Positions 2,479-37,724 are shown, numbered from the stretch's first letter. The stretch is 64,000 bases of DNA from Myxococcota bacterium (GCA_046075485.1 JBJTQF010000129.1:1824-65823); one strand, 5' to 3'. The notes: generated by a model not told the origin, from the sequence alone. Program-made: numbers and translations.

Positions 2479-4527
2479 ATGGGAACCGGCACTCAGATCA
2501 TCGATTTTATCAAGAGTAAGCAGGACGTCCAAGCGTTCAAAGACCTCCACTGGGAGGGATCTTTTGACGAATACTTGGACATTGTGAAGCAGAATCCCGG
2601 GGTGACCCGTTCCGCCTATCAGCGCCTGTATGATATGATCATCTCTTTTGGAACCGAAGAGTATCAAGAGTACAAACGCACCATCATACGATACAAGTTT
2701 TTTGATGATCCTCTCGATCATGGCAAGGATGGAGTCTTTGGCATCGATATCCATCTGATGAAGCTGGTCAATGTACTCAAAGCCGCCGCCGAAGGTTATG
2801 GCGCAGATCGCCGCGTGATCCTGTTGCATGGCCCCGTGGGCTCCGCCAAATCCACCATTGTACGCCTGATCAAAAAAGGGATTGAGCACTACTCTCGTAC
2901 CCCCGAAGGCGCACTCTATAGCTTTAGCTGGGATGAGACACCCCTCGGCGGAGCAGGTTGGCTGCCCTCTCCCATGAACGAAGAGCCCCTGCTGCTGGTC
3001 CCCCTGGAGCTGCGGAGCGCCGTCGAAGAAGAGCTCAACCGTGGCACCTTTGCACGTTATCCCCTCAAGATTCGAGGGGAGCTCTCCCCCGTCAGTCGCT
3101 TCATGTATCGAGAGCTGCTCAAAAAGGTAGACGGTGACTGGGGCACCATGCTCAAGCACATCAAAGTGAGACGACTGGTGCTCTCCGAGAAGGATCGGAT
3201 TGGCATCGGCACCTTCCAACCCAAAGACGAAAAAAATCAAGACTCCACCGAGCTGACCGGTGACATCAACTATCGAAAGATCGCCGAATACGGCTCCGAC
3301 TCCGACCCACGCGCCTTCAACTTTGATGGAGAGTTTTGCATCGCAAACCGTGGGGTGATCGAGTTTATCGAGATTCTAAAGCTCGACGTGGCCTTTTTGT
3401 ATGATCTGCTGGGTGCATCTCAAGAGCACAAGATCAAGCCCAAGAAGTTCGCTCAGACCGATATCGATGAGGTGATCATCGGTCATACCAATGAGCCAGA
3501 ATACCGTCGCCTTCAGAATAACGAGTTTATGGAGGCCCTGCGCGACCGTACCATCAAGATCGATGTGCCGTATATTACCCGCGCCAGCATGGAAGTGAAG
3601 ATCTATCAAAAGGACTTCAATGGACAGCGAGTCAAAAAACACATCGCCCCTCACACCCTCCAGATGGCCGCAATGTGGGCCGTGCTCACCCGCTTGGAAG
3701 ATCCCAAAAAGGCCACCCTCACCCTGCTGCAAAAGCTCAAGCTCTACGACGGCAAAACCTTGCCCGGCTTCACCGAGGACAATATCAAAGAGCTGCGCAA
3801 AGAGGCCATCCGCGAAGGACTGGAAGGCATCTCTCCTCGATATGTGCAAGATAAGATCTCCAACGCACTGGTGCGAGAAGAGTATGCCAGCATCAACCCC
3901 TTCATGGTACTCAATGAGCTGGAGAGTGGCCTCAAGAATCACTCGCTGATCTCCAATGAGGAGGTCAAAAAGCGTTATAAAGAGCTGCTGGCGGTGGTCA
4001 AAAAGGAGTACGAAGACATCGTGAAAAACGAGGTCCAAAAGGCCATCGTCGCCGACGAAGACGCCATCAGCCGCCTCTTCCAGAACTACATCGAAAACGT
4101 CAAAGCCTATACCCAGAAAGAGCGGGTGCGCAACCGCTTCACCGGCCAAAACGAGGAGCCCAATGAGCAGCTCATGCGCTCCATCGAAGAAAAAATCGAC
4201 ATCCCCGCCGCTCGAAAAGATGATTTCCGCCGTGAAGTCATGAACTATATCGGCGCACTGCTCATGGAAGGCAAAACCTTCGACTATCGCAGCAACGAGC
4301 GACTCTACAAGGCACTCGAACGGAAGCTCTTTGAAGATCAGAAGGACTCCATCAAGCTCACCAGCTTGGTCTCCAATGTGGTCGACAAAGAAACCCAAGC
4401 CAAGATCGACATCGTAAAACAACGACTGATCAAGCAGTATGGCTATAACGATGAGAGTGCAACAGATGTGCTCAACTTTGTGGCCAGCATCTTCGCGCGC
4501 GGAGACGCGCGCGGAGACGCACGCTGA
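2479..4527 (+). CDS. prkA: PrkA-family serine protein kinase (AAA+ ATPase domain)
   Basis: 682 aa. Walker [13 protein letters not shown]. Global similarity to PrkA/YeaG (N-terminal AAA domain plus PrkA C-terminal domain). First gene of a conserved prkA-yeaH-spoVR arrangement. Confidence 0.85.
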
Positions 4528-4560
4528 GGCGCACACTGAGGCGCACACTGAGGCGCGCAG
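4495..4560. repeat. Two adjacent short tandem repeats: cgcgcggagacg x2 (encoding the [11 protein letters not shown]-terminus of PrkA) and ctgaggcgcaca x3 just after the stop
   Basis: Direct repeats seen in the sequence at the 3' end of prkA. Confidence 0.7.
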
Positions 4561-4640
4561 GCGCGTGCGTGAGCGGACACACATCCCCTCACGAGCGCGT
4601 ACAGTCGCAGGCGTAGAGGGAACGGTCATCGGGAGGTGCT

Positions 4641-5750
4641 GTGGCGCTGGACATTGAAACCGATATCAATCGTTTCAAACATATTGTGCGTGGAAAGATC
4701 CGAAAGGATCTCAAAAAATACATGAGTCAAGGAGAGATGATCGGACGGAAAGGCCGTCAGTTGGTCTCTATTCCTTTGCCTCAGATCGAGATTCCACGCT
4801 TTAAGTTTGGAAGCCGAAACCAGGGTGGCATCGGTCAGGGTGAAGGTCAGCCCGGCACCCCCATCGGAGACGACGGAGAGCAGCAGCCCGGACAAGGAAA
4901 AGCCGGAGAAGCCCCCGGTGAACACCTGCTCGAGGTCGAGCTGACCCTCGAAGAGCTGGCCGCCATCATGGGCGAAGAGCTCAAGCTCCCCCGCATCAAA
5001 CCCAAAGGCCAAAAGCAGATCGAGACCGAAAAAGACCGCTATGTGGGCATCTCTCGCACCGGCCCCGAGAGCCTGCGGCACTTCAAACATACCTATCGCC
5101 AAGCACTCCGGCGCCAGATCTCCACCGGGAGCTATCAGCCGGATAATCCCATCATCATTCCCATCAAAGAAGACAAACGCTATCGAAGCTGGCGCACCAA
5201 ACCCAAACCACAATCCAATGCGGTCATCATTTATATGATGGATGTCTCCGGCTCGATGGGAGAAGCTCAAAAGGAGATCGTGCGCACCACCGCATTCTGG
5301 CTGGATACGTGGCTCGCCAGTCAATATAAGGGCCTCGAGACCCGCTACATTATCCACGATGCCGCCGCAAAAGAGGTGGATAAGGATACCTTCTTCCGCA
5401 CCAAAGAATCAGGTGGGACGCTGATCTCTTCTGCGTATAAGCTGTGCAAACAGATCATCGTCAATGATTATGATGTGGAAGCCTGGAATATCTACCCCTT
5501 CCACTTCTCGGACGGAGACAACTGGTCCGGCACCGACACACGCGAGTGCTTGGCATTGCTCGATCAGTTCTTCTTTCCAACCTGCAATGTCTTCTGCTAC
5601 GGTCAAGTCGAGAGTGAATATGGCAGTGGTCAGTTTCTCCGCGATCTGAAGGAACACTATGCCACCCACGAGCAGCTCCTGACCGCCAAGATCGATGACC
5701 GGGATGACATCTATAATGCCATCAAGACCTTTCTCGGCAAAGGGAAGTGA
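4641..5750 (+). CDS. YeaH/YhbH-like DUF444 protein (vWA-like C-terminus)
   Basis: GTG start with a GGGAGG RBS. The N-terminus ([20 protein letters not shown]) resembles YeaH. C-terminal [13 protein letters not shown] is a vWA MIDAS-like motif. It lies between prkA and spoVR as in the conserved operon. Confidence 0.75.
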
Positions 5751-5761
5751 GGACGCCGACC

Positions 5762-7387
5762 ATGAGCACTGAATCCGCTGAGCAGTCCCACACCAGCACC
5801 GACACCCACTCCAACTCCCCCGTGGAGACACCTCCCTCTTCTCTGCTGGTCTTGGGCAATGATAAAGACCATAGCCTGCCCCCGGAAATCCGCGAGCTCG
5901 TCGATGAGATCAAAGGATATGCCGATGAGTTTGGCCTCGATACCTTCCCCACCCTCTTTGAGATGCTCGACTACGATGAGATCAATATGGTGGCGGCACG
6001 AGGCGGATTTCCCACCCGCTATCCCCACTGGCGCTTCGGCATGGCGTATGAAGAGCTCTCCAAAGGCTATGAGTACGGCTTGCAGAAGATCTATGAGATG
6101 GTGATCAATAATAATCCTTGTTACGCCTATCTGTTAAAATGTAATGCACTCATCGATCAGAAGATGGTGATCGCGCATGTGTATGGGCACTGTGACTTCT
6201 TCAAGAATAATATGTGGTTCTCCCATACCAATCGAAAAATGCTCGATCAGATGGCCAATCATGCCACCCGAGTACGCCGCTACATCGAACGTTTTGGCGC
6301 GGATCGAGTCGAAGCCTTCATCGACACCTGCTTGAGTGTGGAAAATCTCATCGACTACCATGCACCCTATATCAGACGGCGGGTTGATCCCGACGCCCGC
6401 GCACGGACAGAGCACGATGAGGGCCAAGCCGGAGGGGGGGATGGCATCGACGGGGTATATAAGCTCCGCTCCGACCGGCGTTATATGGATACGTACATCA
6501 ACCCCCCGGAGTTTATCGCCTCTCAGCGCGAGAAGCTCAAAGCGGAAGCCGAAAAAGTCCGCCGCTTTCCCGAAGATCCCGAAAAAGATGTCCTGCTCTT
6601 TCTGCTCGAGAACGCCCCGCTCGAGCACTGGGAGCGAGAAGTCCTCCAGATTGTGCGCGACGAAGCGTACTATTTTGCGCCACAAGGCATGACCAAGATC
6701 ATGAATGAAGGTTGGGCCAGCTACTGGCACACCACCATCATGACTCAACGCGCGATGAAGGACTCTGAAGTCATCGACTACGCCGATCACCACTCCGGAA
6801 CCGTGGCCATGAACCCCGGCAGTCTCAACCCCTATAAGGTGGGCATCGAGCTCTTCCGCGACATCGAAGAGCGATGGAACCGAGGTCAGTTCGGGGTCGA
6901 GTGGGATGAGTGTCACGATCTTGAGGCCAAACGCCGCTGGAATCGACAGCTCGGCCTCGGTCGCCAGAAGATCTTTGAGGTGCGCCGCATCTACAACGAT
7001 GTACAGTTTTTGGACGCCTTCTTGACCGAAGATTTTTGCCACCAGCACAAGCTCTTTGTGTACGACTATGACCAACGTGCCGGAAAATATGTGATCTCCA
7101 GCCGCAAGTTCGCGGATGTCAAACGCCGCATGTTGAGCATGATGACCAACTTCGGCAACCCACGCATCGCCGTGACGGATGGAAACCATAACAACCGAGG
7201 AGAGCTCTATCTTCAACACGAACACGATGGGGTGGACCTCAAGGTGGATTATGCCATCGACACCCTGCGCAACCTGGTGGCCCTCTGGCGTCGTCCGTGT
7301 TTCCTCGAGACCATCGTGGAAGGCCGACGGGTGGTCATGAGCCACGACGGAAAAGAGTTCAAAAGTGTACCTTACGCAAAAAAATAG
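5762..7387 (+). CDS. SpoVR/YcgB-family protein
   Basis: ATG at 5762 with a GAGG RBS; ORF 5747..7387 trimmed. Length and conserved blocks (YAYLLKCNALIDQKMVIAHVYGHCDFFKNN, EGWASYWHTTIM) are typical of SpoVR. Third gene of the prkA operon. Confidence 0.8.
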   Translation: MSTESAEQSHTSTDTHSNSPVETPPSSLLVLGNDKDHSLPPEIRELVDEIKGYADEFGLDTFPTLFEMLDYDEINMVAARGGFPTRYPHWRFGMAYEELSKGYEYGLQKIYEMVINNNPCYAYLLKCNALIDQKMVIAHVYGHCDFFKNNMWFSHTNRKMLDQMANHATRVRRYIERFGADRVEAFIDTCLSVENLIDYHAPYIRRRVDPDARARTEHDEGQAGGGDGIDGVYKLRSDRRYMDTYINPPEFIASQREKLKAEAEKVRRFPEDPEKDVLLFLLENAPLEHWEREVLQIVRDEAYYFAPQGMTKIMNEGWASYWHTTIMTQRAMKDSEVIDYADHHSGTVAMNPGSLNPYKVGIELFRDIEERWNRGQFGVEWDECHDLEAKRRWNRQLGLGRQKIFEVRRIYNDVQFLDAFLTEDFCHQHKLFVYDYDQRAGKYVISSRKFADVKRRMLSMMTNFGNPRIAVTDGNHNNRGELYLQHEHDGVDLKVDYAIDTLRNLVALWRRPCFLETIVEGRRVVMSHDGKEFKSVPYAKK

Positions 7388-10299: not shown

Positions 10300-10430
10300 T
10301 GAAGTCTCGTGTGTGCGGATGCGTGGGTGCGTGCGGATGCGTGTGTGCGGGTGGGTGCGTGTGGGTGGGTGCGTGTGGGTGGGTGCGTGCGAGTGCGTGC
10401 GGATGCGTGTGTGCGGATGCGTGGGTTTTA
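10300..10430. repeat. GT-rich imperfect microsatellite-like tandem repeat (units approx gtgcgtg(g/c)g(g/a)tgc; runs of gggtg) in the convergent intergenic region
   Basis: Seen in the sequence. Lies between the histidine kinase stop and the M23 peptidase stop. Both overlapping ORFs are low-complexity (His/Pro/Thr-rich) artefacts. Confidence 0.7.
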
Positions 10431-11633
10431 TTCGATGGCCATTGCTTCGGGGGGGACGCGGATCCACTGGATGGGGTTGACGGGTTTGCCGTTCTCGCGC
10501 ACTTCCAGATACAGGTAGGGGCCTTGAAAGGAGCCGGTATCGCCGACGAGGGCGATTTTTTCGCCGGTTTTGACTTTGTCTCCTGCGTTTTTGAGGAGCT
10601 TGGAGGCGTGTGCATAGATGGAGTGGTATCCGTCGCCGTGGTCGATGATCATGAGCAGGCCGTAACCTTTGAACCACTCGGCGAGTTTGACTTCGCCCTG
10701 GTAGATGGCTTTGATGTCGGCACCGGCGGGAGCGGTGATGTCGAGTCCTCGGTGTGTCTCGCTGACTTTCATGCCTTCGAGTTTGTAGCGGCCAAAGGCG
10801 CGGGTGACTTTTCCGGCTGGGACGGGATAGGGAAGGCGACCAATCTGTGCGGCGAAGCCAGACTTTTCGTCGGCTTTTTGCCGGAGGGGTGATGCGGGTT
10901 CGGTGGAGCTTTTTTCAGCCACGGGTTTGGGGGGAGGAGGTTCCATCTTCCGGGCGAGTGCTGCGGCGGCCAGCTCCAGCTCTTTGAGTCGGCGAGCGTC
11001 GATGCCTTTTTCGGTGCGCAGCTTCTCGAGCAGCTCTTTTTTGCGGAGCCGTTCGCCCTGGGTTTGGACCATTTGTTGTTCGACGTCGGTGGTGAGTGCT
11101 TGGACTTGCAGGCGTTCGGTCTCGAGCTGTTCTTTGATTTCTCCGGCGCGGGCGATGGCACGGCGTTGTTTCTGGACCAGGGCCATGTCTCGCTCGATGA
11201 TGATCTGGAGGTATTTCATGCGCTTGAGGATCTCGGTGCCGGATCCGCCGCCGAGCAGGGCCTGCATAAAACCTTTGTTGCTGTATTTGTAGAGGGCGCG
11301 GAGCCGCTGTTGGAGGAGGACGCGGCGTTCGACGAGGCCATCTTCCAGCTCGGTGCGTTCTTGCTCGAGGCTGGCGATGCGCTCTTCGACTTGTTTCTGG
11401 CGTGTGCGGGCTTGCTCGAGCTTTTGTTCTTGTTCTTGGATGGCGCGGTCGATGGCTTCGAGGGCGTCGAGTACGGAGTCTTCCTGTTTGAGGGTTTCCT
11501 CGAGCTTTTGACGCTGTTGTTTGAGGGCGTCGGGGGCGGCTTGGCCGAGCAGGAGGGGAAGGATGAGGCATAGGAGGAGCAGCCGCGTGATGCGGAGGGG
11601 GGTGAGGGGGCGGTGTGGGCGGAGAGCGGGCAC
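10428..11633 (-). CDS. EnvC-like murein hydrolase activator: N-terminal coiled coil + C-terminal M23 (LytM) peptidase domain
   Basis: Signal/TM at the N-terminus, long heptad coiled coil (QKLEETLKQ... LEQERTELED...). C-terminal M23 motifs HRGLDI, DHGDGYHSIYAH, GDTGSFQGPYLYLEV. Confidence 0.75.
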   Translation of the reverse strand: MPALRPHRPLTPLRITRLLLLCLILPLLLGQAAPDALKQQRQKLEETLKQEDSVLDALEAIDRAIQEQEQKLEQARTRQKQVEERIASLEQERTELEDGLVERRVLLQQRLRALYKYSNKGFMQALLGGGSGTEILKRMKYLQIIIERDMALVQKQRRAIARAGEIKEQLETERLQVQALTTDVEQQMVQTQGERLRKKELLEKLRTEKGIDARRLKELELAAAALARKMEPPPPKPVAEKSSTEPASPLRQKADEKSGFAAQIGRLPYPVPAGKVTRAFGRYKLEGMKVSETHRGLDITAPAGADIKAIYQGEVKLAEWFKGYGLLMIIDHGDGYHSIYAHASKLLKNAGDKVKTGEKIALVGDTGSFQGPYLYLEVRENGKPVNPIQWIRVPPEAMAIE

Positions 11634-11717
11634 GATGACTCCGGGTAAAACGATGGGGGGGAGGTTGGGATCATTTTAACCAGATGCGACGTAACCTTCA
11701 ATCTCTCTACAAAAAAG

Positions 11718-11856
11718 CAAAACACGGGTCAAGGGATGGAATCCCTTGCTGGTGAGTCTGAGAGGACAGCGTCCTCTCAGCTTAAAAGCCGCTTGGAAAG
11801 CGGCTTTTCTTCTTTATTGAAAGGGCTTTGCCCTTTCAAACTATCCCAGCAAGGGC
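11718..11856. repeat. About 140-bp multi-hairpin repeat element, copy A (inverted relative to copies B and C)
   Basis: Four consecutive perfect stem-loops: aagggat-gga-atccctt; gagagga-cagcg-tcctctc; aaagccgctt-gga-aagcggcttt (followed by a T-run); gaaagggc-ttt-gccctttc. About 90% identical to the reverse complement of 20581..20718. Confidence 0.75.
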
Positions 11857-11876
11857 CAACGGGCCCCTGCACCCCT

Positions 11877-12719
11877 TTAGTATTTCTGACACATACTGCA
11901 AAAGTATGTCGCACGCTGCGCCATCACCTCCCGTCTCAACGGCGCAGCACAGCGTGGACACGGTTCTCCCTCCCGCTGATACACCTGAAAATGATTCTCC
12001 GAGCCCGGCTCACTCAGATACAACACCTCATCCGCCGCTTCCGCCTCCACCGCCCAACGCAGCACCCCCACCACCGCCGAAGCCAGCCGCTCATACCCCT
12101 CGACACTCAGCCCTCGTGCGGGCGTGCGCGGGTGAATCCCAGCTCGAAAGAGCGCCTCCACCGCATAGATATTCCCCACACCCGCCACCCTCGCCTGGTC
12201 CATCAGCGCCACCTTGATCGGCTGGCCCGTGTTCTGCATCACCGCCTGAAGCTCCACCCCACTGAGCCCCTCGAGCAGCGGATCAATTCCCGAGACCTCC
12301 TCCCGCAAGCGCACGGGCCCCTCCTCTCGCGGCCAAACCCAAAGCCCTCCAAAGTTGCGCATGTCCACAAAACACAGCGGCTTTCCCTCATCCAAGAGGA
12401 CTCGCACGCGCGTAAAACGAGGAAGACCCTCCAGCTCCTGCACCCACTTTCCCGTCATTCCAAAGCGCATCAGCCAGCCCACCGGCCCCGAAGTCTCCAT
12501 CCAGATCGCCTTGCCCCGCCGCGTCAGGCCCGTGACCCGAGTCCCCTCCACCCGCTCCGCCGCGCCATCCCCAGACACGCCATCCTCAGACGCTCCGTCC
12601 TCAGACGTTCCAGTCCGAAAACAGCCCGCTCGATAGACCTCCACCCGCACAATCAAGCGGCCCAAAAGCCAACGCTCGAGATTTTGACGCACGATCTCTA
12701 CTTCAGGCAGCTCAGGCAT
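11877..12719 (-). CDS. mutM: Formamidopyrimidine-DNA glycosylase (Fpg/MutM)
   Basis: N-terminal MPELPEVE catalytic motif, H2TH region, C-terminal zinc finger CPRC...CSMC. Carries a small low-complexity insertion (SEDGASEDGVSGDGA) encoded by a short DNA repeat. Confidence 0.85.
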   Translation of the reverse strand: MPELPEVEIVRQNLERWLLGRLIVRVEVYRAGCFRTGTSEDGASEDGVSGDGAAERVEGTRVTGLTRRGKAIWMETSGPVGWLMRFGMTGKWVQELEGLPRFTRVRVLLDEGKPLCFVDMRNFGGLWVWPREEGPVRLREEVSGIDPLLEGLSGVELQAVMQNTGQPIKVALMDQARVAGVGNIYAVEALFRAGIHPRTPARGLSVEGYERLASAVVGVLRWAVEAEAADEVLYLSEPGSENHFQVYQREGEPCPRCAAPLRREVMAQRATYFCSMCQKY

Positions 12720-12758
12720 GAATGTGTCCTCACGGATCAGAGAGTCCAGGAAAAACGC

Positions 12759-15395
12759 TCAGTAACCCGCCCCTTCACCCGACGGGATACCCGGTGTTGG
12801 CGGAATCGGAGGATTTCCCTCCAGCGTCACCGGCGTCAGCGGCTCCCGTACATGCTCCTCTCGCGGCGTCGGCAGCGGCGTGCCACGCTCCCCCAACGAA
12901 AAACAGAGCCGAAATCCCAGCGAGACATTGCTAGACGTCTCGGGATAACCTAAATTTCGCGCTAACCGACAGGTCCGCTCACCAACCGTCCAATTACCGC
13001 CCTTCGTGTTGCGCAAGACACGACTGGTCCCATAAAAATCCGCCGTCCACTCCGAAACACACCCCGCCATGTCCTGCACCCCATACGGCGAGAGGTCTTG
13101 CGGATACCGCCCCACCGGCTCCACCGTGGTACGCCCCGGCTTCGAGTCCCGGTTTTTACAATAAGTGGCCTCAAACGCATCTCCCCACGGAAAAAGACGC
13201 CCGTCCGTACCACGGCCTGCCTTCTCCCACTCCGCCGTCGTCGGGAGTCGATAGGGCTTCCCATCCTGCTTGCTCCGCCACGCCGCATACGCCATCGCGT
13301 CTTCCCAGCGCACGTAGATCATCGGAAAATCAGGCTCCCACCGATCCCCTTCCTCATCCGGCGCGTTCGGGAGGCAAAATCGACCCTCCGCCGTACAGGG
13401 CCAGACCGGTTTGTTGTTCTGTGGCGCGCGGGGCGCTCGTTTTTCAGCCTCCTCCGGTTGAGTCGCTTGCAGATCGTTCAGAAACGCCAGGTACTCCCCC
13501 GCCGTCACCGGCAGACGCCCAATCGCGAAGTCGTCCAACATCCCCGTCATCAAGTCTAAGCTGAACGCCTCCGGGTCGCCCCCCATGCGGAAGAGCCCCC
13601 GAGGAATATAGACAAAATCCGGTCCCAGCTCGTCCTCTCGATAGAGCTGCACCCGCGCCTCAATCTTCTCCGTGCGGCTGATGTAAACCGGAAAGCGCAC
13701 CTCCCGATACCCCTCCAAGCTCAACACCGCCAAGTACGAGCCCACCGGGAGCGAGACCCGCACCGGACCTCGCCCCAGCCGCCGAGGAGTGGCAGGCTTG
13801 AGCGCCCGATCCTCTTCTCGAAAGGTGTACAAGACAATCGAGGCCCCCGGCGGTTCACTCTCGATGCGCAGCTCACCGTCTCCTTTGAGCACCGCACTGT
13901 AGCGGCCTCGCACGTCGAAGGCTTGAACACGCGCCTCAAAGTAGCTCAGCTCTGAGCGGTTTCCACGCGCCTCCGCCTGCAAAAAGCGCTGGAGATAGAG
14001 CTCCGCCAGCTCCTCACGGGCGTCTAAGAAGTTGGTATCATGGCCGATGGCCTGGAGAAAGGTCTTCTCCGCCTCGTTAAACTCCCGCATGGCCGCTTCT
14101 TCCATGCGATCCGCTTGGTTCTGAAGCGCCCACACCGGACGCTTCCGCTCCAGACTGTCCCAGGAGTGGCTCTCGCGCCGCGCATCACTGGCGAGCTGCT
14201 GAAGTCGCCGCGCCTCCTCGTGCAGCGCCTTATATTGACGCGATAAGTTGCGGGCATCTCGAAGGGTGGCCTCCGCCGCACGTCGTCGCCACTCCTGCTC
14301 TCGAGTACCTTCTAAAAAGGCGGTGATATCACTGTGTAAGGCCAACGCGGAGCTGTATCGCTCATCCGGCTCTTTTGCCAGACACTTGAGACAGATCTCC
14401 TCCAGCACAGGCGGGATCCGACGCTCTGGCGCTCGAAGGGAGGGTGGCTCCAGGGCTCCCGAACGAATCCGGTTGTAGAAGTGTTCGTCGGGCTCTCCTG
14501 GCGTGCGCTCAAAGGGCGGGGTCCAGGTGAGGATCTCGTACAAGATCGCCCCCAGGGAGTAGAGGTCGCTGCGCTCGTCCAGACGTGCGATCTCCCCTTC
14601 GAGCTGCTCCGGTGAGATATACGAAGGAGCGCCCACAAATCCCGCCGAGCTCGAGATCGGCAGGGCCGGCCCATGCGAGTCCAGGCTCAGCGCCAAGCCC
14701 CAGTCGAGCAGGAGCACCTCACCGTAGGTTCCAATCATGATGTTGTTGGGCTTCAAATCCCGGTGGATGATGTGGTGACTGTGCGCGTATCCCACCGCGT
14801 TGACCACCTGTAGAAAGATCGTCAGCAGACGCACTCGTCCCCACGCCTCCAGCCGATCCGGCTCACCCCGCTTGAGCGAGCGTAACACCTCCGAGAGACG
14901 TTCGCCCTCCACCCGGCGCATGACGTACCCACACTGACCATCACGGCTCGAGACCAAGTCGTAGATGGGCACGATGTTGGGATGCTCCAGGCGAGCGGTG
15001 AGTCGAGACTCATCCTTGAGCAAGGCGTTGATGCCGGATTCTTCTGCCATTTCCGGCAGCGGAAGTTTGAGGGCCACATTACGCATGAGCAGGCGGTCGT
15101 AGGCCAGCAGAACCAGTCCCATGCCACCGCGCCCCAGCTCCTCCCGCCCAAACTGGTAACGGGAGTGCGGATTGCCTTCCTCCACATGCGGCGCGATGCT
15201 CCGCTCCTGCTCGGTGAGCGCCACCGGTGCCAAACCCTCTCGCGAGAAGGGCAGCCGACTGGATGTTAAGGAGACCGTCGAGATGCGCTTTTCACCTTCA
15301 CTACTTTCGTGGGAGCTGTCGAGGCTCTCGGGTCCGGTGGTCAAAAACTTGTTGAAGCGCCCCCAGAGGGAGTCTTTTGAGGCGTCATCCGCCAT
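12759..15395 (-). CDS. Ser/Thr protein kinase fused to a C-terminal FGE-sulfatase (formylglycine-generating-enzyme-like) domain
   Basis: Kinase motifs GRGGMGLV (Gly-loop), VALK, HRDLKPNNIM, DWGLA. The C-terminus matches the FGE-sulfatase fold (YRLPTTAEWEKAGRG, GNVSEW-like GCVSEWTAD, LGFRLCF). Its start overlaps the stop of the upstream sigma-54 activator by 11 nt. Confidence 0.8.
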   Translation of the reverse strand: MADDASKDSLWGRFNKFLTTGPESLDSSHESSEGEKRISTVSLTSSRLPFSREGLAPVALTEQERSIAPHVEEGNPHSRYQFGREELGRGGMGLVLLAYDRLLMRNVALKLPLPEMAEESGINALLKDESRLTARLEHPNIVPIYDLVSSRDGQCGYVMRRVEGERLSEVLRSLKRGEPDRLEAWGRVRLLTIFLQVVNAVGYAHSHHIIHRDLKPNNIMIGTYGEVLLLDWGLALSLDSHGPALPISSSAGFVGAPSYISPEQLEGEIARLDERSDLYSLGAILYEILTWTPPFERTPGEPDEHFYNRIRSGALEPPSLRAPERRIPPVLEEICLKCLAKEPDERYSSALALHSDITAFLEGTREQEWRRRAAEATLRDARNLSRQYKALHEEARRLQQLASDARRESHSWDSLERKRPVWALQNQADRMEEAAMREFNEAEKTFLQAIGHDTNFLDAREELAELYLQRFLQAEARGNRSELSYFEARVQAFDVRGRYSAVLKGDGELRIESEPPGASIVLYTFREEDRALKPATPRRLGRGPVRVSLPVGSYLAVLSLEGYREVRFPVYISRTEKIEARVQLYREDELGPDFVYIPRGLFRMGGDPEAFSLDLMTGMLDDFAIGRLPVTAGEYLAFLNDLQATQPEEAEKRAPRAPQNNKPVWPCTAEGRFCLPNAPDEEGDRWEPDFPMIYVRWEDAMAYAAWRSKQDGKPYRLPTTAEWEKAGRGTDGRLFPWGDAFEATYCKNRDSKPGRTTVEPVGRYPQDLSPYGVQDMAGCVSEWTADFYGTSRVLRNTKGGNWTVGERTCRLARNLGYPETSSNVSLGFRLCFSLGERGTPLPTPREEHVREPLTPVTLEGNPPIPPTPGIPSGEGAGY

Positions 15396-17220
15396 GCTCC
15401 CTCCTCGGCTTACGACCCCGATGGGCCGGACGATGTTCGTTCAGGTCCAGCTCATGCAGGAGGCGGCTGAGATGCTGACGGGAGATGTCGAGCATGTCCG
15501 CTGCTTCTTGTAGGTTTCGGTCGGTACGCTGGAGGGCTTCGGCCAAGAGCTGACGCTGAAAGTTGTTGGTGGCCTCTTTCCAGGTAGGAAACTCGCGTCC
15601 TTCGGCAGTCGGCAGGGGCGTCGAGCGTCGCTCCATCGAGGCCAGCAGGGATGCGGAGATGGTGCCATCGGGGGCATGCATGGAAGCTCGAGCCAGCAGC
15701 CCTTGAAGCTCCTTCACATTTCCGGCGAGTGGATGGGCCTGGAGCCAGGTGCTGGCCTCTGGGGAGAGGGTAAAGCTCCGGTCCACATTCACCCCCAGGT
15801 TGAGCAGGGTATGCTCGGCGAGCAGGGGGATATCGTCCTTTCGGTCGCGCAGGGGCGGAATTCCGATGCGGAACACGTCCAGCCGTACAAAGAGCTCTTC
15901 CCGAAAGGAACCCGAGGCAATACAGTCCCGCAGATCGGCGGTGGTGGTCGCAATCATACGCACATCGAGGGGCCTGCCGGAGCTCTCGCCCACCCGAGCT
16001 GCGGTGCCATCTCGCAGCAGGCTCACCAAGCGGAGCTGCGCTTCGAGGCTGAGCTTCTCGACATCCTTGAGCATGAGGGTGCCACCATTGGCTTCTTCGA
16101 CTTTGCCGATGCGGTTGCGGTCGGCTCCGGGCACAGCGCCGCGTGAGCACCCAAACAGGAGGGCTTCTTCGAGCAGCTCACCGGGCTGTCCACTCTGAAA
16201 CAACACAAATGGACCACGCGCGCGCCGACTGTTGAAGTGCAAGGCTCGAGCCACCACACTCTTGCCGGTGCCGGTCTCGCCGCTGATCAGCACGGGGGTG
16301 GAGGCGTTGAGATCCAATGACAAGGTGATCAGACGCAATACTTCGGCGAGGGCTTCGGAGCGTCCAACCACTTCTCTGAAGCCATATCGCTCCCGGTGCT
16401 GCGTGGTATGATCCACCGACTCACTGGCGAGGCTCACCAACATCTGCCGGGAGACCCACCGAGAGACGTGGTTCATCACCAGCTCGATGAGCAGCCGATC
16501 TTGCTCAGGGAAGGCGTTGGCACGCTTGCGGTGCTCGAGGTACAACACGCCCAGTCCTTTTCCTTCTCGGTTGAGCAGGGGGGCGCAGAGCACGGTCTTG
16601 AGGCGAAGCAAGCGGACGCTGGCGTGGTCGGCAAAACGTGCGTCACGGATGGCTTCTTCCGTATAAACGGCGGAGCGGGTGGAGAGGGCTCGGCGCACGA
16701 TCCCTTGAGAGAGCTCGAGCTGCTCCCAGACCACGGCGATGTCTTCTTCTTCGCAGCCTTTGGTGACCACTTCGACGGGCTGTCCGCGTACTTCGCCGGG
16801 GCGCGAAAACAGGATGAAGATGCCTTTTTCGGCGTCGGTGAGGCTCACCAATGCGCCCAACACTTGAGATAAATAATTCTTGACCGATGGGACTTCGTCG
16901 CTCTTGAGCAGGGCGCGGAAGAGATCACGCTCGCGGCGGGCGTACTCGCGCTCGTGTACGACGGCTTGATGTTGTCCTTTGAGCTGGACGACCTCGGCCT
17001 CGAGCTTTCGCCTGGACTCCAGCACCTCATTTCGTTCGGCGCGGTAGCCTTGAGCCAGGGTGAAGGCGCTGTTGAGGACGTTCTCGAGCCGTTCATTCTG
17101 TTCAGCACTGAGCTGGGGATTCATGCTCTCAAGGAGCTGCACAACCTCGGGCGGAAAAGCGCGCTGCATAGACCTCATCTCGTTGGCTAAAGGGCTCGGG
17201 TGGACAAGCGTCTGGTGCAA
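15385..17220 (-). CDS. Sigma-54-dependent transcriptional activator (GAF-like sensor + AAA+ sigma-54 interaction domain + C-terminal HTH)
   Basis: Walker A GETGTGKSV, the GAFTGA-equivalent region, ESELFG-like LLEEALLFG, and C-terminal Fis-type HTH (NLQEAADMLDISRQHLSRLL). The start could instead be the internal Met at 17178. Confidence 0.8.
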   Translation of the reverse strand: MHQTLVHPSPLANEMRSMQRAFPPEVVQLLESMNPQLSAEQNERLENVLNSAFTLAQGYRAERNEVLESRRKLEAEVVQLKGQHQAVVHEREYARRERDLFRALLKSDEVPSVKNYLSQVLGALVSLTDAEKGIFILFSRPGEVRGQPVEVVTKGCEEEDIAVVWEQLELSQGIVRRALSTRSAVYTEEAIRDARFADHASVRLLRLKTVLCAPLLNREGKGLGVLYLEHRKRANAFPEQDRLLIELVMNHVSRWVSRQMLVSLASESVDHTTQHRERYGFREVVGRSEALAEVLRLITLSLDLNASTPVLISGETGTGKSVVARALHFNSRRARGPFVLFQSGQPGELLEEALLFGCSRGAVPGADRNRIGKVEEANGGTLMLKDVEKLSLEAQLRLVSLLRDGTAARVGESSGRPLDVRMIATTTADLRDCIASGSFREELFVRLDVFRIGIPPLRDRKDDIPLLAEHTLLNLGVNVDRSFTLSPEASTWLQAHPLAGNVKELQGLLARASMHAPDGTISASLLASMERRSTPLPTAEGREFPTWKEATNNFQRQLLAEALQRTDRNLQEAADMLDISRQHLSRLLHELDLNEHRPAHRGRKPRREHGG

Positions 17221-17482
17221 GCACCCTCCGATACGCTTAAAGACTGAGCAGGAATATTACATATTCTGGAACGAGAGGAGAAGTCAAAGAAAGTTTTTCA
17301 GGCCGTTATTCGCCGTTATTCAAAGAGGGGCATCAGAATTTGAAACGCTTCGATCCTGTGATTACGGAATCTCTCTATTCCGGCTATGGTATATAGCCAT
17401 TTTTGTCCAGCGTCTGCTGGTGTTGGCATACCTGGAACATCTGCTGGTCTTTACCAGCCCCTGCTCGGAAGGAGAGTTGCGC

Positions 17483-18079
17483 ATGAACGCCCTCAAAAGT
17501 TCGCTCTTTCTTGTGACGTTGGTCTCATTGCCTCTGGCGCGTATCGACTCGTGCGGCAATTATGACGGAGACCTCGACGGTTTTGGTGAGGACGATGACA
17601 ACTGCGTCGAGCAGTATAATCCCAGCCAGCAGGACGAGGACGGAGATGGGGTGGGAGACGCATGTGATGCGGACACGCCTCAGCATGATACCCATCTGGC
17701 GCCGTGTTATGTCGCCAACTTCTCTGACTTGAGGGGCATCGGCTGGACGGACATCAAGATGTATCCTTATGTGGATGGTGCGGGCACCAAGTGGATGATC
17801 TTCTGGTGGCCGCCTTCTGATTGGCCCGAGTACGGCATCCAGTACGATAATGGCCAGGATGTATGGTCGATGATCTCCAACGAAGCCAGTGTGGACTGGA
17901 CCAGCACCTGGTTTGAAGCCTTCGGCGTCGAGACCGATGCCACGGGCATGGTGACGGTGCTCGAGGGTCCGGCCATCATGCAGTCGTGTACAAACTGCGA
18001 CACCTCCACCTACTGGGAGAAGTGGTACGAGGGCGTCATGACCGCTGAGGCCACCGACATATCCTTCTGCACCGAATAA
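17483..18079 (+). CDS. Secreted protein with a thrombospondin type-3-like calcium-binding Asp-rich repeat
   Basis: ATG 17483 with a GGAGAG RBS. Signal peptide MNALKSSLFLVTLVSLPLA. DGDLDGFGEDDDNC...DEDGDGVGDACD matches DxDxDG TSP3-like motifs. Divergently transcribed from the sigma-54 activator across an AT-richer intergenic region. Confidence 0.5.
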   Translation: MNALKSSLFLVTLVSLPLARIDSCGNYDGDLDGFGEDDDNCVEQYNPSQQDEDGDGVGDACDADTPQHDTHLAPCYVANFSDLRGIGWTDIKMYPYVDGAGTKWMIFWWPPSDWPEYGIQYDNGQDVWSMISNEASVDWTSTWFEAFGVETDATGMVTVLEGPAIMQSCTNCDTSTYWEKWYEGVMTAEATDISFCTE

Positions 18080-18101
18080 CGCGCCCCTTCTCTCTGCTCT
18101 T

Positions 18102-18186
18102 GAGCCTGCCCTTGTTTTGAGCCTGCCCTTGTTTTTGAGCCAATCCCTGTTTTTGTGCCAATCCCTGTTTTTGTGCCTCTCCCCTC
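18102..18186. repeat. Tandem direct repeats (about 4.5 x 18 bp, g(a/t)gcc(tg/aa)(c/t)ccctgttttt) between the TSP3-like gene and the PaaK-like gene
   Basis: Seen in the sequence. The antisense ORF 18010..18198 (GIGTKTGIGTKTGIGSK) is an artefact of this repeat. Confidence 0.75.
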
Positions 18187-18256
18187 GGTTGGAATCACGT
18201 TATGATGTGCGGTACTGGATTTTTATGTCTCTTGCTCTCCTGCTGGAGTAGATCCC

Positions 18257-19702
18257 ATGCCGTCTTCCGCTCACGCCCTTGATTTGCCTGCCGATTCGCC
18301 CACACGCTGGCGCACGCCACTGTCGGAGCCCTCATGGGAGCAGACCCTAAAGCGGCTGAGAGAACATCCGGGAGCACCTCGCTTTAACCATGAGGCGGGA
18401 GATCGACTGCTCGCCTCGGATGTGACGGCGTTGAGGGCCTTTCGTGAGGAGCTCAGGCAATCGACTCGGCGATGTTTTGAGCGGCGACCACCTCCGGCGT
18501 TGCTGGAGAAGCTGCAACAGGTGCTGCCGCATGTCTCTCACCTCGCGGAGCGGCTGCCCGAAGGGTTCCGGCTGGAGCACTCCTGGGAGGAGCTCCCCAC
18601 GATGTCGCGGGCGGACTTGGCGGAGCATCCCGAGCGGCTGGTGCCAGATAACATCTCCCTGGAGCGGTTGCTGGTGTATCGCACGGCGGGCACGACGGGG
18701 CATGCGCTGCTGGTGCCACATGAGGCGCGGGCGGCGGCAGCGTATCAGCCCTTGATCGAACATGCGCTGTCGCGTTATGGGGTGCAGCTTCCGACGGAGC
18801 CGGACAAGGTCTTATGTTTTCTGTTGGGGGCGCAGGCGCACACGGTGACGTATCCGTGTAATCTGAGCTATTTCGGGGGTGCCGGTTTTGCGAAGCTCAA
18901 CCTGAACGGGGCGGATTGGCCTTCGGAGCAGGCCATGCTGGACTATCTGGCCCACTTTGATCCGCCCCTGTTGACGGGGGATCCGCTGACGTTTGCGGAG
19001 CTGTTGCGGCTCAACCCGATGCTGCATCCCCGCGCACTGCTGAGCACGGCGGTGGCGATGAGTCCGGGGCTCAAGGGGTTGCTGGAGCAGCGTTTTCGAT
19101 GTCCGGTGATCGACTGGTACTCGCTGACGGAGACGGGACCGTTGGGATATGCTTGCCCGCTGGGGCACGGGTATCATCAGCTCTCGGAGGACGTCTTTCT
19201 GGAGGTGTTGCGGGAGGATGGGCTGTGTTTGCCGCCGGGGGAGCGGGGAGAGCTGGTGGTGTCGGGGGGGCGAAATCCCTTCTTGCCGCTGTTTCGCTAT
19301 CGCACGGGAGACTGGGGCTCGCTGGATTTTGAGCCATGTCCGTGTGGGGATCCGCTGCCACGCCTGCGGGGGCTGGAGGGTCGAGCGCCGGTGAAGTTGA
19401 TCTCCACCTCGGGGCGGCTGGTGAATACGGTGGACGTCTCGCGGGTGCTGAGGGCCTTTCCGATCTTGCAGCACGAGCTGGAGCAGGAGCATACCCATCG
19501 CATCCGGCTGAGGGTGAGGCCGTTGGGGGTGGGCACTCCCCTTCGGCTTCCGCTGCTCAAGAAAGCGTTACACGCGCTCTTTGGAGAGGATATGGAGCTC
19601 GAGCTGGAGGTGGATCCGTCGTTGGGGAAGCGGCAAGCAGAGGCAGGCACGGGCGACGGAAAACTCCTTCCATACAAGAGCCGGTTGTTACTGGAGGAAT
19701 AA
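18257..19702 (+). CDS. PaaK/F390-synthetase-like adenylate-forming enzyme (acyl-AMP ligase superfamily)
   Basis: 481 aa. YRTGD motif (FRYRTGDWGSLD) and TAGTTG-like region (YRTAGTTGHALLVPH) are typical of the phenylacetate-CoA ligase / coenzyme F390 synthetase family. The stop is 4 nt upstream of the radical SAM start. Confidence 0.55.
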   Translation: MPSSAHALDLPADSPTRWRTPLSEPSWEQTLKRLREHPGAPRFNHEAGDRLLASDVTALRAFREELRQSTRRCFERRPPPALLEKLQQVLPHVSHLAERLPEGFRLEHSWEELPTMSRADLAEHPERLVPDNISLERLLVYRTAGTTGHALLVPHEARAAAAYQPLIEHALSRYGVQLPTEPDKVLCFLLGAQAHTVTYPCNLSYFGGAGFAKLNLNGADWPSEQAMLDYLAHFDPPLLTGDPLTFAELLRLNPMLHPRALLSTAVAMSPGLKGLLEQRFRCPVIDWYSLTETGPLGYACPLGHGYHQLSEDVFLEVLREDGLCLPPGERGELVVSGGRNPFLPLFRYRTGDWGSLDFEPCPCGDPLPRLRGLEGRAPVKLISTSGRLVNTVDVSRVLRAFPILQHELEQEHTHRIRLRVRPLGVGTPLRLPLLKKALHALFGEDMELELEVDPSLGKRQAEAGTGDGKLLPYKSRLLLEE

Positions 19703-19706
19703 AGGG

Positions 19707-20573
19707 ATGTCTATCCACCCTTCGGCGAGTGTTCTGGAAAAGGAGCGGCAAGCGGTTGTGTTGGGGGAGGCTGAGCGGCAAGCGGTTGTTTTGGGGGAGA
19801 CTGAGCAGCCAGCGGGACGGGGCCACTGGGATGCGCCCACGCCGACGAGACCCCATCGGGTGTATGCGGCGCTGACCAACCACTGTAACCGACGCTGTCC
19901 GTGGTGTAGTACCTGTTCATCACCGGAGGGCGAGACCTGGTTGGACCCGGAGAAGCTCTGGGCCAGCCTTCCGGCAGAGGGGCCGTATGAGCTCCAGCTT
20001 GAGGGGGGAGAGCCGACGTTACATCCGGCATTTTGGTCGCTGGTCGCGCGTGCGAGGCAAGACGAACGCTGTCGGCGGGTGGTGTTGTGTACCAATGGAG
20101 TGGTGCTCCCGCGCACACGAGGGCGGCTGGAGGCGTGGGTGGAGCGGCTGGGGGTGCCGGTGACGTTAAAGTTGTCGTGGAATCATCATGTGCTGGAGCG
20201 GGATCCGGGGTTGCCTGCGCTGGCACAGGCGCTGGTGGAGATCATGACGCGGCTGGGAGGAGAGCGACAGTTTGTGCTCAACGTGCGGCTGAGGCGAGGC
20301 GCGCATGAGGATGATGCGTGGGTGACGGCGCGGGCGGAAGCGGCGGGGATCTTGGGGTATGCGAACGTTTTTTATCTTCAGCGATATGGGTTTGCGTCGG
20401 AGGAGGAGGGGTGGGAGGTGCCGCACTTGGTGGGGTATGATTTTCGGTTGATCAACCCGGATGGGCGGGTTTTTGGGCCAGCGCTGGTGGAACGCTCGGA
20501 GGCGATGCGGCGGCTGATGGACAGCACCACACGAGACGCGCCCCCCCCAACAACAAATGGGGTGCAGGGGTGA
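19707..20573 (+). CDS. Radical SAM protein
   Basis: ATG 19707 with a GGAGG RBS directly after the PaaK-like stop. CX3CX2C cluster CNRRCPWC. Glycine-rich QLEGGEPTLHP. The N-terminal region contains a 2 x 30-bp coding tandem repeat (QAVVLGEAER/QAVVLGETEQ). Confidence 0.65.
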   Translation: MSIHPSASVLEKERQAVVLGEAERQAVVLGETEQPAGRGHWDAPTPTRPHRVYAALTNHCNRRCPWCSTCSSPEGETWLDPEKLWASLPAEGPYELQLEGGEPTLHPAFWSLVARARQDERCRRVVLCTNGVVLPRTRGRLEAWVERLGVPVTLKLSWNHHVLERDPGLPALAQALVEIMTRLGGERQFVLNVRLRRGAHEDDAWVTARAEAAGILGYANVFYLQRYGFASEEEGWEVPHLVGYDFRLINPDGRVFGPALVERSEAMRRLMDSTTRDAPPPTTNGVQG

Positions 20574-20580
20574 GACCCAC

Positions 20581-20718
20581 CCCTGCTGGGAAAGTTTGAA
20601 AGGGCAAAGCCCTTTCAATAAAAAAGAAAAGCCGCTTTCTAAGCGGCTTTTTAAGCTGAAAGGACGCTGTCCGTTCAGACTTTCCTGCAAGGGATTCCAT
20701 CCCTTGACCCGTGTTTTG
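20581..20718. repeat. About 140-bp multi-hairpin repeat element, copy B (direct orientation; contains terminator-like hairpins right after the radical SAM stop)
   Basis: Reverse complement is about 90% identical to 11718..11856. Hairpins gaaagggc-aaa-gccctttc and aaaagccgctttc-taa-gcggcttttt (with T-run), then aagggat-tcc-atccctt. Confidence 0.75.
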
Positions 20719-20780
20719 TTTTTTTGGTTTTTGCGCTGCTGTTTTGTGCACTGCTATTTTTGCACTGCTTTTTTTTACAA

Positions 20781-20841
20781 AGAGGGCGCTGCCCTCTCTG
20801 CACGCTCCCGCAAGGGATTCCATCCCCTGACCCGTGTTTTG
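20781..20841. repeat. Partial third copy (C) of the multi-hairpin repeat element
   Basis: agagggc-gct-gccctct hairpin followed by gcaagggattccatcccctgacccgtgttttg, which is near-identical to the end of copy B. The flanking T-rich gcactgctgttttgtg motif is also duplicated. Confidence 0.6.
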
Positions 20842-20872
20842 TTTTTTTGCACTGCTGTTTTGTGGTTGAACC

Positions 20873-29879: not shown

Positions 29880-30043
29880 CCGTTTCTTCCTACACCCATG
29901 CCCCTGACCGTTTCTTCCTACACCCATGCCCTTTGACCGCTGCTTTCTACACCCATGCCCTTTGAACTGTCCGACTTTTCGGACAGTGTCCGACTTTTCG
30001 GACACTCGGACACCCCCTCGGACACCTGCCCGGACACCTCCCA
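29880..30043. repeat. Cluster of tandem direct repeats and repeated hairpins right after the AI-2E stop: 3 x ~28 bp (ccgtttcttcctacacccatgccc...), 2 x tgtccga-cttt-tcggaca hairpin, 4 x cggacacc
   Basis: Seen in the sequence. The units are contiguous with no spacers, so it is not a CRISPR array. The hairpins may be terminators, or operators for the downstream gene. Confidence 0.75.
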
Positions 30044-37612: not shown

Positions 37613-37680
37613 CGCGCATCACGTAGGTACGCGCATCACGCCGGTACGCGCATCACGTAGGTACGCGCATCACTCAGGTA
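37613..37680. repeat. 4 x 17-bp tandem direct repeat (cgcgcatcacg(t/c)(a/c)ggta) downstream of glgC and upstream of the flotillin-like gene
   Basis: Seen in the sequence. Confidence 0.75.
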
Positions 37681-37724
37681 CGGCAGCAGGCGCTCGTGGA
37701 AGGCGACAGCAGGCAGGCGCAGGC

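Follow-up and report, generated by a model that had tools for sequence, protein, structure and literature searches.

Inverted copies of a hairpin-rich repeat, here called A and B, flank an 8.7-kb block of genes in a 64,000-nt stretch of DNA from a Myxococcota bacterium (GCA_046075485.1, JBJTQF010000129.1:1824-65823; hereafter the window, with positions counted from its first nucleotide). Such an arrangement raises the question of whether the block inverts or moves as a unit, or whether each repeat belongs to the operon that it adjoins. On balance, A and B are probably non-coding, imperfectly palindromic mosaic repeats of ~170-190 nt that now act as terminators or insulators. They would be of the kind represented by repetitive extragenic palindromes (REPs), bacterial interspersed mosaic elements (BIMEs), REP doublets forming hairpins (REPINs) and miniature inverted-repeat transposable elements (MITEs). 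The picture of an invertible or mobile block would then give way to a simpler one, in which two divergent operons are each capped by a palindromic repeat with a predicted bidirectional terminator.

Architecture, gene context and close relatives

The first-pass annotation of this sequence had reported two inverted, ~90% identical copies around a block of ~8.7 kb, and BLAST bore this out, with 92.3% identity over 143 nt (E = 1e-50). The similarity is real and far beyond chance. A repeat search of the 64-kb window recovered it as two pairs of inverted arms, 11710-11787/20649-20726 (78 nt, 91%) and 11784-11855/20580-20651 (72 nt, 94%), and the longest identical runs between A and B measure 32 and 30 nt. 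While the inverted pair itself stood, its proposed bounds did not, as the true extent is wider: A occupies 11710-11875 and B occupies 20559-20726. Over these full elements 148 of 168 columns are identical (88%), A differs from B by a 1-nt indel, and the gene-side start of both is a common GGGGTGCAGGGG (11864-11875 on the minus strand; 20559-20570). Apart from A, B and a shorter copy, C, that follows B, no other copy turned up in the window, whether with BLAST, with an nhmmer profile for the conserved core or with an unfiltered covariance model. Eight of the ten perfect hairpins in the window with a stem of at least 8 bp fall in A and B, against ~5.8 such hairpins for the whole window in shuffled sequence. 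Given this concentration of strong hairpins and a GC content of 49-52% against 60%, the element is foreign to the local intergenic style. RNA folding, which the annotation had proposed as a check, showed both copies to be strongly folded, with z-scores of -5.9 and -5.3 for the two repeat regions.

A consensus fold computed from the reverse complement of A together with B contains five hairpins, H0-H4, rather than the four stem-loops per copy first described; H0, overlooked before, is maintained in both copies by two compensatory double changes, and H3 shows a third. The perfect hairpins are H1-H4 in A (stems of 8-11 bp) and H0, H1, H2 and H4 in B. H3 of B carries one A.G mismatch and, compared with A, one compensatory change from G-C to A-T. 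The layout runs from an A-rich tract through GGGT, H0, a spacer and H1 to the central H2, and then through H3, a spacer, H4 and ACCC to a T-rich tract. The parts are listed below, with scores from R1, a covariance model built from the H3-H4 module.

11710-11875, minus strand: copy A, full element, 166 nt, 52% GC (window 60%), reading GGGGTGCAGGGG-H0-H1-H2-H3-H4-ACCC-T-rich tail
11849-11870, minus strand: H0 of A, GCAGGGGCC-CGTT-GGCCCTTGC, 9 bp, one G.T pair
11817-11839, minus strand: H1 of A, TTGAAAGGGC-AAA-GCCCTTTCAA, 10 bp
11784-11808, either strand: H2 of A, central bidirectional terminator-like hairpin, AAAAGCCGCTT-NNN-AAGCGGCTTTT, with flanking A-tract and T-tract
11726-11780, minus strand: H3-H4 module of A with ACCC (H3 at 11758-11780, spacer, H4 at 11730-11748); R1 60.2 bits over 11726-11779
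11710-11729, minus strand: tail of A, ACCCGTGTTTTGCTTTTTTG
11818-11874, plus strand, opposite to the element: left arm of A (H1 and H0), degenerate inverted module; R1 21.7 bits, E 0.017
20559-20726, plus strand: copy B, full element, 168 nt, ~49% GC
20564-20586, plus strand: H0 of B, GCAGGGGTG-AGACC-CACCCCTGC, 9 bp, containing the radical-SAM TGA at 20571-20573
20596-20618, plus strand: H1 of B, hairpin
20627-20651, either strand: H2 of B, central bidirectional terminator-like hairpin, between the convergent radical-SAM gene and 237-aa gene
20656-20710, plus strand: H3-H4 module of B with ACCC (H3 at 20656-20678, H4 at 20688-20706); R1 58.7 bits over 20657-20710
20707-20726, plus strand: tail of B, ACCCGTGTTTTGTTTTTTTG
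20560-20617, minus strand, opposite to the element: left arm of B (H1 and H0), degenerate inverted module; R1 23.7 bits, E 0.007
20727-20776, plus strand: T-rich spacer, a 14-15-nt tandem repeat, GTTTTTGCACTGCT, in 3.4 copies
20781-20864, plus strand: copy C, two-hairpin module including tail and motif (module and tail, 20781-20849); R1 57.7 bits at 20779-20833
20781-20797, plus strand: H3c of C, AGAGGGC-GCT-GCCCTCT
20811-20829, plus strand: H4c of C, one A.C mismatch, repaired to T in the ERR14789953 strain
20830-20849, plus strand: tail of C, as in B

R1 scores the modules of A, B and C at 58-60 bits and also matches H0-H1 on the opposite strand. When the left arm is aligned with the right arm's reverse complement, the score is 49 in B and 41 in A, where shuffles give 17 +/- 3, and the alignment spans ~70 nt, including the A-rich tail that mirrors the T-rich tail; in B, this A-rich counterpart reaches left to ~20541, within the radical-SAM open reading frame (ORF). 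From the opposite-strand R1 hits and the arm alignment, each full copy is an imperfect palindrome whose terminal inverted repeats are long and degenerate. Copy C, which had been taken for a truncated repeat, is a real copy behind B and yet not a truncation, as R1 scores it as a complete minimal two-hairpin module. It matches the 3' end of B over 40-48 nt at 95-97% identity (BLAST partial match of 40 nt, 20810-20849), and it is closer to the module of locus L006, at 83.6% over 55 nt, than to H3 of B. A GCRCTGCTGTTTTGTG motif occurs within the T-rich spacer at 20733-20748 (GCGCTGCTGTTTTGTG) and again after C at 20849-20864 (GCACTGCTGTTTTGTG).

Pfam and ORF calls resolve the 8.7-kb block into two divergent operons. 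Pfam confirmed the gene content first proposed, namely mutM, a kinase-FGE fusion, a sigma-54 activator, a TSP3-like protein, a PaaK-like ligase and a radical-SAM gene, and likewise the lack of a transposase or integrase in the block.

11877-17220, minus strand: leftward operon, ending at A, with the sigma-54 activator (15385-17220), the Ser/Thr kinase-PEGA-FGE fusion (12759-15395) and mutM (11877-12719)
17483-20573, plus strand: rightward operon, ending in B, with the TSP3-like gene (17483-18079, called as 198 aa), the AMP-ligase (PaaK-like, 18257-19702) and the radical-SAM gene (probable start ATG 19707, stop 20573)
11673-11701, minus strand: sigma-70-like promoter match TTGAAG-17-TAAAAT, directly downstream of A, ahead of the M23 peptidase gene (10428-11633)

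A starts 1 nt past the mutM TAA stop. B overlaps the end of the radical-SAM ORF, so that the TGA of this gene falls in H0, and separates the gene from a convergent 237-aa gene. Thus, both full copies are oriented alike with respect to the gene that precedes them, 3' of the outermost gene of each divergent operon. Both operons have their promoters within the block. The inverted flanking pattern may simply follow from this equal polarity at two divergent operons, with no inversion needed. Locus L010 has the same layout: opposite-strand copies flank a hydrolase and a TetR gene that point left and a flavoprotein and a ferredoxin gene that point right.

H2 (AAAAGCCGC...GCGGCTTTT) is the sole hairpin accepted by a terminator scan, and it was accepted in A and B alike. 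In both copies it scores on the strand antisense to the upstream gene; by symmetry, 4-5 U follow it on the sense strand. As H2 is flanked by an A-tract and a T-tract, it is very probably a bidirectional intrinsic terminator. The earlier idea of bidirectional terminators is convincing by sequence for H2, and of the two hairpins said to resemble intrinsic terminators H2 holds while H4, its T-run 7 nt off, is terminator-like only.

The mutM gene has few homologs: one at 98% identity, one at 76% and the rest at or below 57%. Contigs of the same strain (SRR29270176, 99.96-100%) and of a 98.8-99% identical strain (ERR14789953) show the same gene-repeat adjacencies, with the element present. All of these independent contigs break off within a repeat or shortly before one, which hides any orientation variants, and the junction between the radical-SAM gene and B is attested by the window sequence alone. 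That short-read assemblies break at or near the repeat in every sample examined is also a practical nuisance. One same-strain Logan contig, L050, stops at window position 20467, ~90 nt before B, and does not diverge from the window before its end; this stop may be due to low coverage or to a heterogeneous population at the end of the radical-SAM gene. Copy A of the 98.8% strain differs from the window at ~10 positions in its first 65 nt (L018:4154-4218). Several of these changes break H0 and H1; the divergence is far above that of the adjacent genes and may reflect real decay or contig-end error.

A more distant relative, at 81% nucleotide identity (L019, L020), holds the block in the same internal order, with radical SAM, ligase and TSP3-like genes on one side and sigma-54 activator, kinase and mutM on the other. 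The element is absent at both ends: mutM is followed by a 105-nt spacer and an acyltransferase gene, the 60 nt past the radical-SAM stop contain no element, and R1 matched nowhere in L019 or L020. Read at the sequence level, this comparison, which lacks a clean empty site with identical flanks, shows insertion or gain of the element relative to the 81% relative. No homologs common to the window and this relative were found in the flanks beyond the block, and the GC content of the block (0.61-0.63) equals that of its flanks. The radical-SAM protein of the relative ends in ...AMRRLP*, whereas that of the window ends in ...AMRRLMDSTTRDAPPPTTNGVQG*, with 17 extra C-terminal residues (MDSTTRDAPPPTTNGVQG; window 20516-20573) that have no counterpart in the relative and are encoded in and beside the left arm of the element.

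As separate observations on the block, the N-terminal part of the radical-SAM gene contains a 30-nt tandem duplication (19743-19815, 2.4 copies) that yields a repeated ERQAVVLGE peptide. Across 15385-20573 a GAF-sigma-54 activator is divergent from the small secreted TSP3-like protein, the AMP-ligase and the radical-SAM enzyme, an arrangement kept in the 81% relative, and together these genes may form a sigma-54-controlled peptide or cofactor modification cassette.

The H3-H4 module in other bacteria and in phages

A repeat confined to these two sites, with no hairpin conservation elsewhere, would have pointed to a local duplication; instead, the H3-H4 module recurs, with covariation, well beyond the window. 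An exact scan with a single 20-mer, GGGATTCCATCCCYTGACCC, against 185,579 species genomes and a metagenome collection matched 6 loci in the former and 11 in the latter. At these loci, identity extends to 27-31 bases, and in each a CCYG and a variable GC-rich hairpin with a C-GCY-G apex precede this H4 core. We judge that these matches are not chance. The records name Lachnospiraceae, Christensenella and other Clostridia or Bacillota as hosts, plus one partial match in a Bacteroidales metagenome-assembled genome, and module loci range from 42% to 69% GC. The module thus defined combines H3 with a C-GCY-G apex, H4 as CAAGGG-N7-CCCTTG, a 5' CCYG foot and a 3' ACCC foot. In viral contigs, a loop-free pattern found 21 more loci, in which two or three units form an array with covarying stem interiors (GGGAC-GCT-GTCCC, GGGGC-ATT-GCCCC, GGGAG-TTC-CTCCC and GGGGG-ATC-CCCCC). 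L027, one of these contigs, encodes endolysin, large terminase, portal, scaffold and major head proteins and is a genuine siphovirus-like phage.

Covariation was assessed on an alignment of 18 distinct curated module instances, with pairing in 97% of cells and two-sided changes at 7 of the 14 pairs (27 cells). None of 500 shuffles reached the observed score, and slid controls collapsed. Since H3 was in no search pattern, ascertainment bias does not affect its covariation. The 237 paired cells include no G.T wobble, an absence that fits constraint on both strands, either at the DNA level or as bidirectional function.

The covariance model also placed inverted partner modules around a central hairpin at L002, L005, L013 and L022. 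In the Lachnospiraceae dnaA-rnpA-yidC region (L001, L013 and L016), strains whose flanks are 98.7% identical have entirely different hairpin arrays at one intergenic site; for example, when L016:6095-6165 is compared with the reverse complement of L001 3431-3676, a composite of 120 nt stands opposite an array of 'GC hairpin + AC(Y)CC' units that is 246 nt long. L013 and L001 cease to be syntenic within 9 nt of a unit. The module has no consistent orientation to neighbouring genes from locus to locus.

The phage contigs also carry larger structured repeats. In L027 (5004-5413, 6886-7270 and near 14.9 kb), as well as in L035, L036, L038, L045, L046 and L032, two or three paralogous repeats of ~350-380 nt, 79-84% identical, lie after the terminase and portal genes and antisense to them; several hairpins in these repeats covary, and the module with a T-run forms their end. 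They have no Rfam match and may represent an unknown phage RNA. Transposition between phages L027 and L045 was considered and rejected, as the repeats are orthologous paralogues with no evidence of movement.

Class assignment and competing explanations

A repeat of the REP/MITE-like kind, as the first-pass annotation had suggested, is borne out by a non-coding hairpin array that is missing from both sites of the 81% relative and whose H3-H4 module occurs in other bacteria and phages. The best-supported assignment would be a new family of REP/BIME/REPIN/MITE-type palindromic repeat. BIMEs of enterobacteria are mosaics of palindromic units in alternating orientation that lie at the 3' ends of transcription units and affect termination or mRNA stability. 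The element resembles them in combining palindromic units with short motifs, in its position at 3' ends of transcription units and in varying between strains at a site; it differs in having no sequence relationship to them and in being far scarcer in available sequence. A further trait of BIMEs is the binding of IHF, gyrase and Pol I. MITEs such as Correia/NEMIS, RUP and ERIC are non-coding elements of 100-200 nt with terminal inverted repeats and long hairpins, found beside genes. Their size, terminal inverted repeats, lack of coding capacity and ability to supply terminators or alter gene ends are all matched here, and presence/absence polymorphism of the MITE type was seen, with the element absent at both sites in L019/L020 and arrays varying between Lachnospiraceae strains. 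In contrast to MITEs, the terminal repeats of ~70 nt are only ~70% matched and internally structured, there is no target-site duplication, and the collected sequence contains no parent insertion sequence or autonomous element with matching ends.

REPINs are inverted REP doublets mobilised by RAYT transposases, and REPIN-RAYT systems are inherited mostly vertically within lineages (PMC3116915; PMC3337134; bioRxiv 10.1101/2022.05.22.493013). Like REPINs, the element consists of short palindromic units in inverted pairs around a spacer, is extragenic and non-coding, shows compensatory change and occurs as solo units beside doublets. Unlike them, its unit has two hairpins with CCYG and ACCC feet rather than one hairpin with a GTAG foot, a GTAG-type tetranucleotide being absent from the hairpin 5' foot, and its spacer is itself a terminator-type hairpin. 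The 27-31 bases shared across unrelated gut bacteria and also phages are not lineage-restricted, and copy number seems low. Compared with ordinary bidirectional intrinsic terminators, H2 has the expected GC-rich stem, A-tract and T-tract and lies between convergent genes (B) or at an operon end (A), but it sits inside a repeated, transferable five-hairpin element rather than in site-specific local sequence.

As a family of mosaic repeats, the element would be assembled from three parts: an inverted, degenerate H0-H1 module with a GGGT end and an A-rich tail, the central H2, and the conserved H3-H4 module with ACCC and a T-rich tail, of which C would be a solo copy. The elements would have arrived by insertion or recombination after the split from the 81% relative, and B would have overwritten the native end of the radical-SAM gene, so that one copy rewrote the C-terminus of this enzyme. 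H2 in B is predicted to stop both the radical-SAM transcript and that of the convergent 237-aa gene, and A may insulate the mutM operon from the gene for the M23 peptidase, itself preceded by a promoter-like site. The flanking hairpins may protect 3' ends by blocking 3' exonucleases. Spread would proceed through a hairpin-recognising enzyme acting in trans or through recombination with phage DNA.

Several observations weigh against this assignment. RAYTs are Y1/HUH transposases whose genes often have REPs beside them, and Pfam found no RAYT or transposase gene in the block; a tblastn search for Y1 transposases over ~458 kb of collected sequence gave no hit, a weak negative; and sequence inspection showed no target-site duplication at the boundaries of A and B. 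The exact 20-mer occurs once per genome in all six matching reference genomes, which suggests a low copy number, unlike classical REPs with their tens to hundreds of dispersed copies per genome. The window has two sites (three modules) 9 kb apart in 64 kb, and sequence searches beyond it found the full five-hairpin composite nowhere else. The polarity argument rests on two copies, and chance could produce it. With regard to termination, the U-tract of H2 in the sense direction has just 4-5 U, and the U-run of H4 is displaced by ACCCGUG, beginning 7 nt past the stem, which makes H4 no more than terminator-like. Finally, the module is antisense to neighbouring genes in several Firmicutes loci and in phage, so a terminator role for the adjacent gene is not general.

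Two other explanations concern the repeat itself. A purely local event, in which one terminator region was copied inverted once and partly in tandem once, would fit the confinement of all window copies to 9 kb and the lack of the full composite in any other sequence searched. We nevertheless give it little credence: the H3-H4 module, including the variable H3 with its C-GCY-G apex, covaries in unrelated bacteria and phages; each full copy is already an inverted doublet, as at other loci; C resembles the L006 module more than the H3 of its neighbour B; and the element is absent at both sites of the 81% relative. A dedicated structured RNA, acting as a 3'-untranslated-region (3'-UTR) regulatory element or small RNA (sRNA) under RNA-level selection beyond termination, seems unlikely as well. 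Such a role is suggested by the strong covariation and very stable folds, by the same-sense transcription of both full copies that would be expected for 3' UTRs, and by the module that ends a conserved RNA-like structured repeat of ~350 nt in L027. Yet no Rfam family fits, the best weak match, Aggregatibacter sRNA 82, falling well below threshold; orientation relative to neighbouring genes is mixed; the near-palindrome makes both strands fold alike; and the complete absence of G.U from 237 cells departs from RNA-only selection, which normally tolerates such pairs.

The remaining explanations return to the block. Flipping of the 8.7 kb between A and B by homologous or site-specific recombination, one of the functions first proposed for the repeats, appears very improbable. 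Although inverted repeats of 143 nt that are 92% identical and include perfect runs of 32 and 30 nt are long enough for RecA-dependent exchange, the block neither contains nor adjoins a recombinase gene, its internal promoters mean that a flip would leave expression unrewired, and in L010 and phage L045 similar outward-pointing pairs surround ordinary genes. No alternative junction was seen among contigs that all break at or shortly before the repeats; the 81% relative, with its non-homologous flanks, gives no information on this point. We regard movement of the block as an island or composite transposon bounded by the repeats as scarcely credible. Its terminal inverted copies do point outward, and the neighbour on the mutM side differs in the 81% relative, but this relative has the block without the repeats, composition is flat from flank to block, no transposase or integrase is encoded, and mutM is a housekeeping gene.

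The mosaic-repeat assignment may also extend further. It is conceivable, though doubtful, that the H3-H4 module is the recognition unit of an uncharacterised hairpin element that moves horizontally across distant gut bacteria and phages, forms REPIN-like doublets and arrays, seeds terminators, rewrites gene 3' ends and marks strain-level rearrangement breakpoints. If so, a mobilising enzyme or recombination route not yet described would be implied, and the element would be an exception to the REPIN-RAYT model of vertical inheritance as well as a supply of ready-made terminators. In either case, the module is a compact, covariation-supported motif, absent from Rfam and the searchable literature, that links an uncultured 60%-GC bacterium with gut Clostridia and siphovirus-like phages.

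Searches for a known identity covered several databases. Rfam, run in gathering and E-value modes on the window, ten related loci and the Lachnospiraceae and phage copies, returned no family at the gathering threshold for the element; among the related loci its hits were guanidine-I riboswitches elsewhere in L001 and L014 only. Sub-threshold matches were Aggregatibacter sRNA 82 (24.3 against 51.4 bits), Termite-leu (23.7 against 51) and Clostridiales-2 (20.1 against 58.6). BLAST of B against plasmids and phages gave no plasmid match and one chance 35-nt terminator match in a Vibrio phage, and a literature search with the module strings in DNA and RNA spelling, together with the supplements of a microbiome RNA-motif paper, yielded nothing relevant.

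Other identities were considered and rejected. A coding function does not hold: the ATG in the H4 loop opens a shadow ORF opposite mutM (11736-12953), but the frames of A and B diverge after ~20 codons owing to the 1-nt indel; in the Firmicutes copies, inspection showed that the reading frame stops after 7-27 codons. A reverse-strand sigma-54 promoter (TGGAATCCCTTGCA) has a GG-GC spacing 2 nt short on inspection, and an integron attC site is excluded by the lack of RYYYAAC or GTTRRRY boxes, also by inspection. The stem and loop geometry is unfit for a tRNA-like T-arm, and Rfam found no tRNA. A CRISPR repeat was dismissed, with no array in the window, no similarity and a B-C spacing of 123 nt that is not array-like.

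Other features of the window

A type III CRISPR-Cas effector cluster (RAMP, Cmr3-like and Cas10 palm domain) lies at 45086-51818, and the 64 kb contain no CRISPR array. Short tandem repeats with periods of 10-29 nt and 3-10 copies occur at 10308-10426, 18100-18178, 29876-29965 and 37613-37682, mostly in predicted intergenic gaps; they include one immediately 3' of the M23 peptidase gene and another that separates the TSP3-like gene from the ligase gene. At 2479-7387, a three-gene operon encodes PrkA, a DUF444 (YeaH-like) protein and a SpoVR-like protein.

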